The notes under the pieces are model-generated. The model worked only from the letters and a program-made list of their open reading frames with translations. It was not told the DNA's origin and did no database searches. A stretch of DNA of 56,146 nt, from the IMG/VR virus record IMGVR_UViG_3300029848_000009, one strand, 5' to 3'. This DNA is from a virus. The translations under genes were made by a program, and so were the position numbers. Shown piece by piece: positions 22,880-24,188 of the stretch (the stretch's first letter is position 1; each line of letters begins with the position of its first letter).

Positions 22880-24188
22880 ATGGGAAAACATACAATGTCA
22901 GACTTATATCAGATGCAGTCACTTCCGCTTTCTGCAAAAATAAGCATGACTGCACGTAGAATAAATGAATGGGTAAACGAATTTGGTGAAGATGGAGTAT
23001 ATCTGTCATTTAGCGGTGGCAAGGATAGCACGGTTTTGGCACACATAATCAGAGAAGTTTGCGGATATAAAAATATTCCTTTTGTGTTTGTAGATGTTCC
23101 AACACAATATCCAGAGTTAAAGGAGTTTGCCAAGACTTTTGATAACCTTGTGATTTTGAAGCCAAAGATTTCATTTGCACAGGTTTGCGAAAAGTATGGA
23201 TTTCCGATGATTAGTAAGGAAGTGTCAAATTGCGTAAGTGGTGCGAGAAAGTATGTTAAATACCTTGACAGTCAAAAATCTAAAAACACAATCTTAACAG
23301 ACAGACAGACAGACAGACAGACAGACAATTCCGTATGCTTGCTATATGGCAGACCTGTTAGGAATAGACAGGAGAATAAACAAGCAGAACGAACAGTACA
23401 AGAGTTTGCAGATGGGTGTTATCCCTAGCGGTTCAGAATATAGGTTACGCAGACTGAATGGAGAACTTACAGATAGTAAAGGCAATTATAGTCAGTTTAA
23501 TCAAGAAAAATATAAGTTCTTTCTTGATGCACCATTTGAAATAAGTGACTTATGTTGTGACATTATGAAGAAAAAGCCTGCGCACGATTACGAAAAGAAA
23601 ACAGGCAGAAAGCCGATTATAGCGACTATGGCAAGTGAAAGCGTTATGCGTACACAGAAATGGCTACAGGACGGCTGTAATGCTTTTAATGTAACAAGAC
23701 CGCATAGCAACCCTATGAGCTTTTGGACGGAACAGGATGTGTTGCTTTACATCAAAGAAAATGCAAGAAGTATGTCGTCTGACGCATATTACAGAAAAGT
23801 GATGAGATATGGAAACAAAGTTGTTTACCGCACAACAGGGGCAACAGCACTTTATCCTTTTAAAGAATGTGGAGCGATATGTTCCGTTTATGGTGAAGTA
23901 GTCACAGATTATGAAGCTATGGGACAATGCGAAAATCAGATGTCATTTGCGGATTTTGGGATTTTTGACAAAGAAAGACCATTGCTGAAAACAACAGGAT
24001 GCCAAAGAACAGGTTGTGTACTGTGCGGATTCGGATGTCACTTAGAGAAAGAAAGCAGATTTTTAAGGTTGAAAGAAACACACCCTAAATTCCATAATCT
24101 ACTTTACATCTTGAAAAACAATGGTGTGACATACGCAGAAGCTATTGATTGGGTAAACGAACACGGAAATATGAATATTAAGTATTAA
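22880..24188 (+). pseudogene. PAPS-reductase-like (PP-loop ATPase) protein with C-terminal Cys cluster, split into two frames at an (ACAG)n repeat (22880-23428 and 23346-24188)
   Basis: PP-loop SFSGGKDST in the first ORF. CQRTGCVLCGFGCH in the second. Removing one ACAG unit fuses both frames. Confidence 0.75.
23297..23327 (+). repeat. Tetranucleotide microsatellite (ACAG)7 + ACA inside a coding region
   Basis: acagacagacagacagacagacagacagaca. It reads TDRQ permutations without stops in all three frames. Confidence 0.95.

Follow-up and report, generated by a model that had tools for sequence, protein, structure and literature searches.

A few bacterial pathogens adapted to their hosts are textbook cases of phase variation by multi-nucleotide repeats. 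In Haemophilus influenzae and Neisseria, the tetranucleotide contingency loci include lgtC, with (GACA)n, lic1, with (CAAT)n, and mod, with (AGTC/AGCC)n (for reviews, see PMC11868660 and PMC2651432). A locus that resembles them is found in the 56,146-nucleotide (nt) viral DNA of IMG/VR record IMGVR_UViG_3300029848_000009 (the whole stretch analyzed here, hereafter the window), where a perfect ACAG repeat of 7.75 units splits a PAPS-reductase-like gene into two frames. We consider it likely, with a probability of about 75%, that this tract is a reversible ON/OFF switch of the contingency-locus type that acts by hypermutable frameshifting. The same proposal had been made in a preliminary description drawn from the letters of the window, and comparison with relatives supports it through varied tract lengths, OFF alleles free of lesions and equal purifying selection on ON and OFF lineages. 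As in the Haemophilus and Neisseria loci, a perfect 4-nt repeat lies in the 5' third of the open reading frame (ORF), the unit number differs among near-identical genomes and sets the ON or OFF state by frame without any other lesion, and locked alleles with short or lost tracts occur; lgtC has even the same unit (GACA equals ACAG). The locus differs from them in its carrier, which is a temperate phage of gut Clostridia and not the chromosome of a Gram-negative pathogen, and in its target, which is a putative PP-loop/iron–sulfur (Fe-S) enzyme of an early operon and not a surface-structure gene or the mod gene of a restriction–modification system. In addition, an entire phage family shares the candidate switch, and its tract adjoins a promoter-like element.

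The phage cases reported so far, from 2021 and from a preprint of 2025, involve homopolymer runs only. Campylobacter phages are reported to carry hypermutable polyG tracts (Sorensen et al. 2021, Cell Rep 35:109214, ref. 66 in PMC11868660). These share with the present locus a phage-borne repeat that diversifies the phenotype of the progeny by frameshift, whereas the repeats are homopolymers in receptor-binding genes of virulent phages instead of a long tetranucleotide tract in an enzyme gene of a temperate phage. In coliphages, A-runs of 6–9 nt in agt of T2 and rIIA of T4 are contingency loci (Gomez, Barrick and Waters, bioRxiv 2025.10.21.683753 = PMC12633550). Phages with agt OFF evade the modification-dependent defence TgvAB, and those with agt ON evade McrA/BC (PMC12633550). 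As a repeat-switched phage gene that modifies DNA, agt is the best mechanistic analogue for the benefit a switch could bring here. That study covers T-even phages, other lytic phages and the BASEL collection, and mentions neither tetranucleotide repeats nor PAPS reductases; our literature search likewise returned no tetranucleotide repeat switch reported in phages or gut prophages. The preliminary description did not know the design from Firmicutes phages; for phages at large, repeat switches are already published, but as homopolymers only. What the present locus adds is the classical Haemophilus-type design, retained by hundreds of temperate phages that infect Clostridia of the human gut, in a gene probably of the DNA-modification/anti-defence class. 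If the switch is adaptive, gut prophages would hedge their bets on the state of DNA modification, which would bear on phage host range, on the shaping of the gut virome by defence systems, and on annotation, in which genes of this kind are routinely split into two calls or labelled pseudogenes.

The gene is OFF in the window, and translation of the window places its halves in different frames (Table 1). ORF1 matches positions 3–72 and ORF2 positions 80–153 of the Pfam profile PAPS_reduct (PF01507), consecutive parts of one domain, and the two ORFs are thus one gene in two frames; both halves also match phrog_424 (E = 1.5e-34). The CC of ORF2 corresponds to residues 224–225 of the fused protein. 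When the unit number is changed in silico, the loss of one unit gives an ORF of 434 amino acids (aa) and the gain of two gives 438 aa, and changes of −3, −2, +1 or +3 leave the ORF broken. The preliminary description had assigned the PP-loop and C-terminal domains to separate frames, had taken the C-terminal frame to be open out of the repeat and had calculated a continuous protein of about 430 aa after the loss of one unit or the gain of two. The ORF coordinates and Pfam positions agree with this assignment, the frame is open from position 23298, and the lengths obtained confirm the arithmetic. A protein search with the joined reading retrieved thousands of relatives as well as an intact 429-aa protein that is 100% identical, so that the intact 429/434-aa form is known elsewhere in 100% identical versions (P0001, P0123 and P0125); a nucleotide search of a phage collection gave distant partial matches only. 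The exact 182-aa product of ORF1, frameshifted tail included, recurs in 34 contigs, and the exact 280-aa product of ORF2 in 38 contigs (NCBI, JGI, Logan and ENA).

Tandem Repeats Finder reports the tract at 23297–23327 with a period of 4, 7.8 copies and 100% matches, in agreement with the perfect microsatellite of 7.75 units given in the preliminary description, and no sense frame through it contains a stop codon, in line with the earlier claim of a TDRQ-encoding repeat that is open in every frame. A perfect 31-nt tetranucleotide tract in 56 kb is far beyond chance, and it is the sole frame-shifting repeat of at least five units in the 56-kb window. The locus thus has the perfect in-ORF repeat with a unit length not divisible by three that characterizes contingency loci.

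The relatives, about 200 gut-phage contigs, carry the tract at the same site with roughly 2 to 19 units. In a protein-anchored set of 80 IMG/VR loci and 4 loci from metagenome-assembled genomes (MAGs), the tract stands at the homologous site in most of the 84 loci and spans 2.75–17.25 perfect units. The closest comparison is with L087, an independent assembly from another sample, which matches the window at every position of 6,843 nt apart from a single 4-nt gap; this gap is exactly one ACAG unit and lies in the tract. Another relative, L001, has a gene 100% identical to that of the window, 6.75 units and the ON state. Among 18 genes with at most 6 mismatches to the window per 1,263 nt, 12 different tract lengths are found (19–75 nt), which requires a minimum of 11 length changes; the genes have 12 segregating sites, and the tract thus evolves about 1,000-fold faster than an individual nucleotide site. 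Unit number therefore varies between near-identical genomes, as it does in contingency loci. The preliminary description had proposed comparing repeat numbers across relatives, and this comparison yields many lengths and both ON and OFF alleles. Where tracts are interrupted by GCAG, these units are placed at or near the 3' end, and the variation in length is in the perfect run on their 5' side. The TDRQ peptide is conserved in the alignment of relatives in one or two copies, and the encoded loop accommodates one to six.

The repeat also occurs in L083 and L084, relatives with a protein identity of only about 48%, and in four further separate clusters at 50% identity. The unit itself can differ at the homologous site: L070 has (GAAC)13 at 3375–3426, L174, L188 and L197 have (ACAGACAA)n with up to about 11 units, and L019 has (ACAA)3(ACAG)7. 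In other relatives the gene is locked. For instance, the L023 class (P0057, 153 contigs) has 2.75 units, and its frame is restored by the compensating loss of 2 nt downstream; L025 and L026 no longer have the tract and are ON.

A trivial explanation for the split would be that the repeat number was mis-assembled or mis-sequenced and that the true gene is in frame. Assemblers do struggle with long tracts of this kind, as 12 of 157 related contigs (about 8%) break exactly there, but the 31-nt tract of the window is shorter than usual k-mers and reads, and MEGAHIT assemblies at k119/k141 yield alleles of 23, 35 and 47 nt. Moreover, the recurrence of the exact ORF1 product in 34 contigs from several sources argues against the assembly collapse that the preliminary description had named as its refuter, and we regard an artefact as extremely unlikely. 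The broken contigs (L108, L124, L157, L170, L179, L191, L193, L196, L199, L210, L233 and L243) start within or just before the tract, which is about 35 times the chance expectation. These starts are ambiguous: either the tracts exceed the k of the assembler, or reads differ in length at this position.

Decay of the gene, with the repeat frameshift as one lesion among several, is just as hard to credit. The gene is split in the window and the adjoining MBL-fold (metallo-beta-lactamase-fold) gene is broken too, yet neither half is damaged, and the same holds for 31 of the 33 OFF alleles; in these 31, the window included, the C-terminal part is full-length, stop-free and open back into the tract. 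The ratio of nonsynonymous to synonymous substitution (dN/dS), taken over 846 nt from both halves, is 0.091 between OFF alleles, 0.095 between ON alleles and 0.105 between ON and OFF alleles (mean dS 0.35–0.48). Because lineages that are currently OFF are constrained as strongly as the others, OFF must be transient, and the identical gene of L001 is ON with one unit fewer. Tract length thus toggles the frame of alleles that are otherwise intact, as in contingency loci, and the varied lengths, lesion-free OFF alleles and dN/dS of 0.09 speak against the pseudogene with a fixed repeat number and additional inactivating mutations that the preliminary description had set as an alternative.

Programmed recoding, in which ribosomes shift frame on the repeat and one protein is always made, would suit a tract without stop codons in any frame and a C-terminal frame that is open from inside it. 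However, there is no slippery heptamer and no downstream stimulatory structure, offsets of +1 and +2 both occur, and ON alleles need no recoding. Programmed sites are also normally fixed in sequence and not polymorphic in length, and we hold this explanation to be very improbable.

The distribution of frames was determined by sampling independent of state, using exact matches to the conserved right flank in IMG/VR and metagenome contigs. Loci ranked by tblastn gave 51 ON and 29 OFF, but this ranking favours ON, and the flank-anchored samples were used for that reason. Of 91 classifiable distinct contexts in the main clade, 31 are ON (34%), 36 are at +1 and 24 at +2, which does not depart from one-third (p = 0.91); in the diverged clade (n = 28), 8 are ON (29%), with 10 each at +1 and +2. 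In the assembled consensus genomes, the frame is at mutational equilibrium. This equilibrium, together with a dN/dS of 0.09, is compatible with fast switching under episodic or fluctuating selection, and the near-exact one-third share of ON alleles at such a dN/dS makes the family a clean natural data set for models of contingency-locus maintenance.

The same frequencies could arise if the tract were hypermutable and non-adaptive, with slippage sustaining the microsatellite and the frame being irrelevant, either because the enzyme is rarely needed or because OFF alleles yield enough product by slippage of RNA polymerase or ribosomes or as two separate half-polypeptides. The one-third ON share in both clades and the equal dN/dS of OFF and ON lineages agree with this idea, and in the main clade the promoter-like element upstream and a nearly invariant Met155 downstream of the tract could allow a separate C-terminal half. 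However, the frame distribution is the same in the diverged clade, where no start codon follows the tract. Furthermore, no Shine-Dalgarno sequence precedes the ATG at 23346, and the split falls within the alpha/beta core domain of the PAPS reductase. A two-piece enzyme made from an internal promoter and Met155 was rejected as the cause of the frame distribution, since the ON share of the diverged clade, which lacks this Met, is likewise 29%. The compensated locked-ON alleles are widespread (P0057, 153 contigs), which implies that restoration of a single ORF was favoured, and a repeat kept at one site across at least 50% protein divergence, with a different unit there, is hard to explain without selection for the repeat as such. 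Because the start-less clade has the same distribution and the locked-ON alleles have spread, we give a non-adaptive tract less weight than the switch and judge it unlikely.

Under the proposed switch, the tract would be altered by whole units through slipped-strand mispairing when the DNA is replicated, either as prophage or during lytic growth, and each change would move the C-terminal two-thirds of the early-operon enzyme gene into or out of frame; the present genome would be OFF and would turn ON by the loss of one unit. The switch may be retained since the enzyme would be useful in some hosts and costly in others. The early operon would be silent in lysogens, where the tract could drift to frame equilibrium, and selection would then sieve tract states on infection of new hosts. 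The promoter-like element could be part of the switch, either by keeping downstream genes transcribed after an early stop of translation or by promoting slippage.

Several points weigh against this interpretation. The ON share equals the one-third expected without selection on state in both clades, with neither state visibly favoured, and these frame and dN/dS figures also fit a hypermutable tract that is non-adaptive. That single populations switch, and how fast, is inferred by comparing assemblies; in the only sample that yielded a pair of contigs (ERZ773190), L225 and L234 differ by 89 mismatches in 600 nt and represent distinct phages. OFF alleles may be expressed leakily by transcriptional or translational slippage on the repeat. 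The element before the tract is sigma-70/sigma-A-like, and its putative role in the switch is read from sequence. Finally, no Dnd or Ssp partner genes (DndD, DndE or Ssp) lie near the gene, and the class of the enzyme, which probably acts on DNA or counters host defence, is deduced from its fold and from precedent.

By its sequence, the gene appears to encode a remote PP-loop/Fe-S enzyme of the PAPS-reductase fold. The N-terminal half scores 30.2 bits with PF01507 (cut-off 22.5), which places it in the PAPS reductase domain family. An AlphaFold2 model of P0001, built from an alignment of 90 sequences, has a predicted local distance difference test score (pLDDT) of 86 and a predicted template modelling score of 0.81, and the closest solved folds found by Foldseek are the PAPS/APS reductases 7rge, 2goy and 2oq2 (probability 1.0, target TM-score about 0.5). 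In this model, the tract peptide (residues 132–142) is the segment of lowest confidence, with a pLDDT below 50, and is contained in a low-confidence insertion at about 131–180; the model thus predicts that it lies in a disordered loop. A second variable region of the gene, of the indel type, encodes about 38 aa (ARSMSS...FKECGA) in the 430–440-aa forms of the protein; it has a pLDDT of about 70 and is replaced by NLP in forms of about 395 aa. Profile searches of the PDB gave no match with the shallow alignment A1 and remote PP-loop matches only with the deeper alignment A2 (CysD, FAD synthase, PAPS reductase and TtuA). Residues C219, C220, C373 and C376 (P0001 numbering) show little or no variation among 90 diverse homologues, and CC...CxxC is the pattern of Fe-S APS reductases.

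More specific assignments were tried and set aside. Assimilatory CysH was rejected on scores of 16.6–25.1 bits with the NCBIfam CysH/PAPS-reductase models (cut-offs 154–165), and APS reductase on 17.0 bits against a cut-off of 235, although its Fe-S ligand pattern is conserved. No NCBIfam DndC model matches at E ≤ 0.01, and the PADLOC matches to SspD (28 bits) and BrxP (25–30 bits) cover only about 50 PP-loop residues. An IbrA-like protein is disfavoured because Pfam gives PAPS_reduct and NAD_synthase alone on the halves, with DUF3440 absent from the matches. Thus, of the PAPS reductase/DndC/IbrA-like family named in the preliminary description, the PAPS-reductase domain and fold remain, and DndC, SspD and IbrA find no support in these tests; its label of phasevarion does not suit the locus either, since the switched gene of the window is not a DNA methyltransferase. 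The upstream 678-aa ATPase was considered as a DndD and rejected, as it matches models of the SMC/Rad50/PtuA type and sits in an SSB–RecT module. Among the scanned neighbours (RecT, phrog_25456, the MBL-fold hydrolase and a 198-aa protein) no ParB-like family was matched; phrog_25456 is a family of unknown function, and the 198-aa protein has no family match. As for precedents, a PAPS-reductase domain of Vibrio podoviruses lets the phage escape host Dnd (bioRxiv 10.1101/2021.05.05.442762), and PAPS reductases occur in Aca-regulated anti-defence operons (PMC13551039). Both tie a phage PAPS-reductase-type domain, as found here, to escape from phosphorothioation defence. The Vibrio protein differs in being a Dam methylase fusion without a repeat, and its likeness was compared at the level of the shared domain. 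By analogy, an anti-Dnd-type function for the gene is plausible.

Some relatives carry repeats in a second gene, a Dcm-like C5 DNA methyltransferase gene that is not present in the window. This gene has (TTAC)5 just before motif IV and, at one site after motif VIII, either (AGAGC)6–16 or (ACAG)14.5. L049 has an ON allele, and L020 and L022 have OFF alleles. The left flank ACAACACAATCTT is common to the PAPS gene and the ACAG version of the methyltransferase gene in L022 and L101, which suggests that tract and flank were copied between the two genes.

The promoter-like layout recurs in the main PAPS clade, the diverged PAPS clade and the methyltransferase gene, three contexts without homology in their amino-acid sequences: each has a −35/−10-like pair with a 16–17-nt spacer that ends 3–5 nt before the repeat. 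In the diverged PAPS clade the element reads TTGCAG-16-TAGAAT or TAAAAT, and in the methyltransferase gene it reads TTGACA-16-TACAAT before (AGAGC)n and TTGACA-17-CACAAT before (ACAG)n. A 10/12 match would end in any one specified 3-nt slot by chance with a probability of about 0.0008. In contexts picked without regard to the hexamers, third-codon positions vary at 0 of 4 sites in the hexamers, at 4 of 5 spacer sites and at 24 of 33 sites farther upstream, and from these counts the element looks to be under constraint. It is conceivable, though we hold it to be doubtful, that a sigma-A-type promoter, a gap of 3–5 nt and a 4- or 5-nt repeat form a portable module that has entered at least two unrelated genes of the DNA-modification type, the PAPS-reductase-like enzyme and the C5 methyltransferase, as a small phage phasome. 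Each induced burst would then release phages of mixed modification states, of which those matching the defences of the next host would establish, and the abutting promoter could start transcription inside the repeat and so raise slippage, or could protect the downstream replication genes from the polarity of OFF alleles.

Table 1. Coordinates of the gene, the tract and further features in the window, and of repeat loci in relatives
Feature	Position	Strand	Remarks
Whole PAPS-reductase-like gene	22880..24188	+	OFF here; predicted PP-loop ATP pyrophosphatase fold, CC...CxxC Fe-S ligand pattern
ORF1	22880..23428	+	PP-loop half (residues 1-138), tract, 33-codon out-of-frame tail to TAG; 182 aa, SGGKDS
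Promoter-like element	23265..23292	+	TTGACA-16-CACAAT; 10/12 matches; 4 nt gap to tract
(ACAG)7.75 hypermutable tract, putative switch	23297..23327	.	ON frame encodes TDRQ repeats
C-terminal reading frame	23298..24188	+	Begins inside tract; stop-free
ORF2	23346..24188	+	Annotated from ATG 23346; 280 aa; CC + C-x4-C-x2-C-x3-C
Second, indel-type variable region	23763-23876		About 38 aa
SMC/Rad50-like ATPase, 678 aa	18708-20744		Between SSB and RecT; AAA_23, AAA_15; weak PtuA and MADS3 N-terminal matches
MBL-fold hydrolase gene (phrog_392)	24208-24950		Split by 5-nt insertion at about 24378-24382
Tyrosine integrase	34246-35442		
Repeat loci of Dcm-like gene in relatives	L020:1324-1835, L022:5906-6460, L035:5987-6538, L049:1803-1837, L051:1-80, L101:7278-7297		

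The window is the genome of a temperate phage, with a tyrosine integrase and an antirepressor. Its rightward early operon includes genes for SSB, the SMC-like ATPase, RecT, a replisome organiser and DnaB, and the PAPS-reductase-like gene sits in it between RecT and the MBL-fold hydrolase. The relatives come from human-gut metagenomes. Some lie within contigs of 216–405 kb and are therefore integrated prophages, and distant relatives are found in MAGs that carry the labels Clostridia, Lachnospiraceae, Feifaniaceae and Acutalibacteraceae.

In the MBL-fold hydrolase gene that follows, an insertion of 5 nt breaks up the HxHxDH motif (CATGG-TTAGG-AGACC) and thereby splits the gene. The insertion is identical in six carriers (the window, L085, L087, L089, L090 and L092), and the same six carry three ACAG tract lengths, of 23, 31 and 35 nt. 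It looks like a fixed, ordinary inherited lesion and offers an internal contrast to the tract. L086, L088, L091, L093 and L094 are free of the insertion, and the sequence upstream of the motif is divergent in them, so that the insertion site is also a mosaic boundary.

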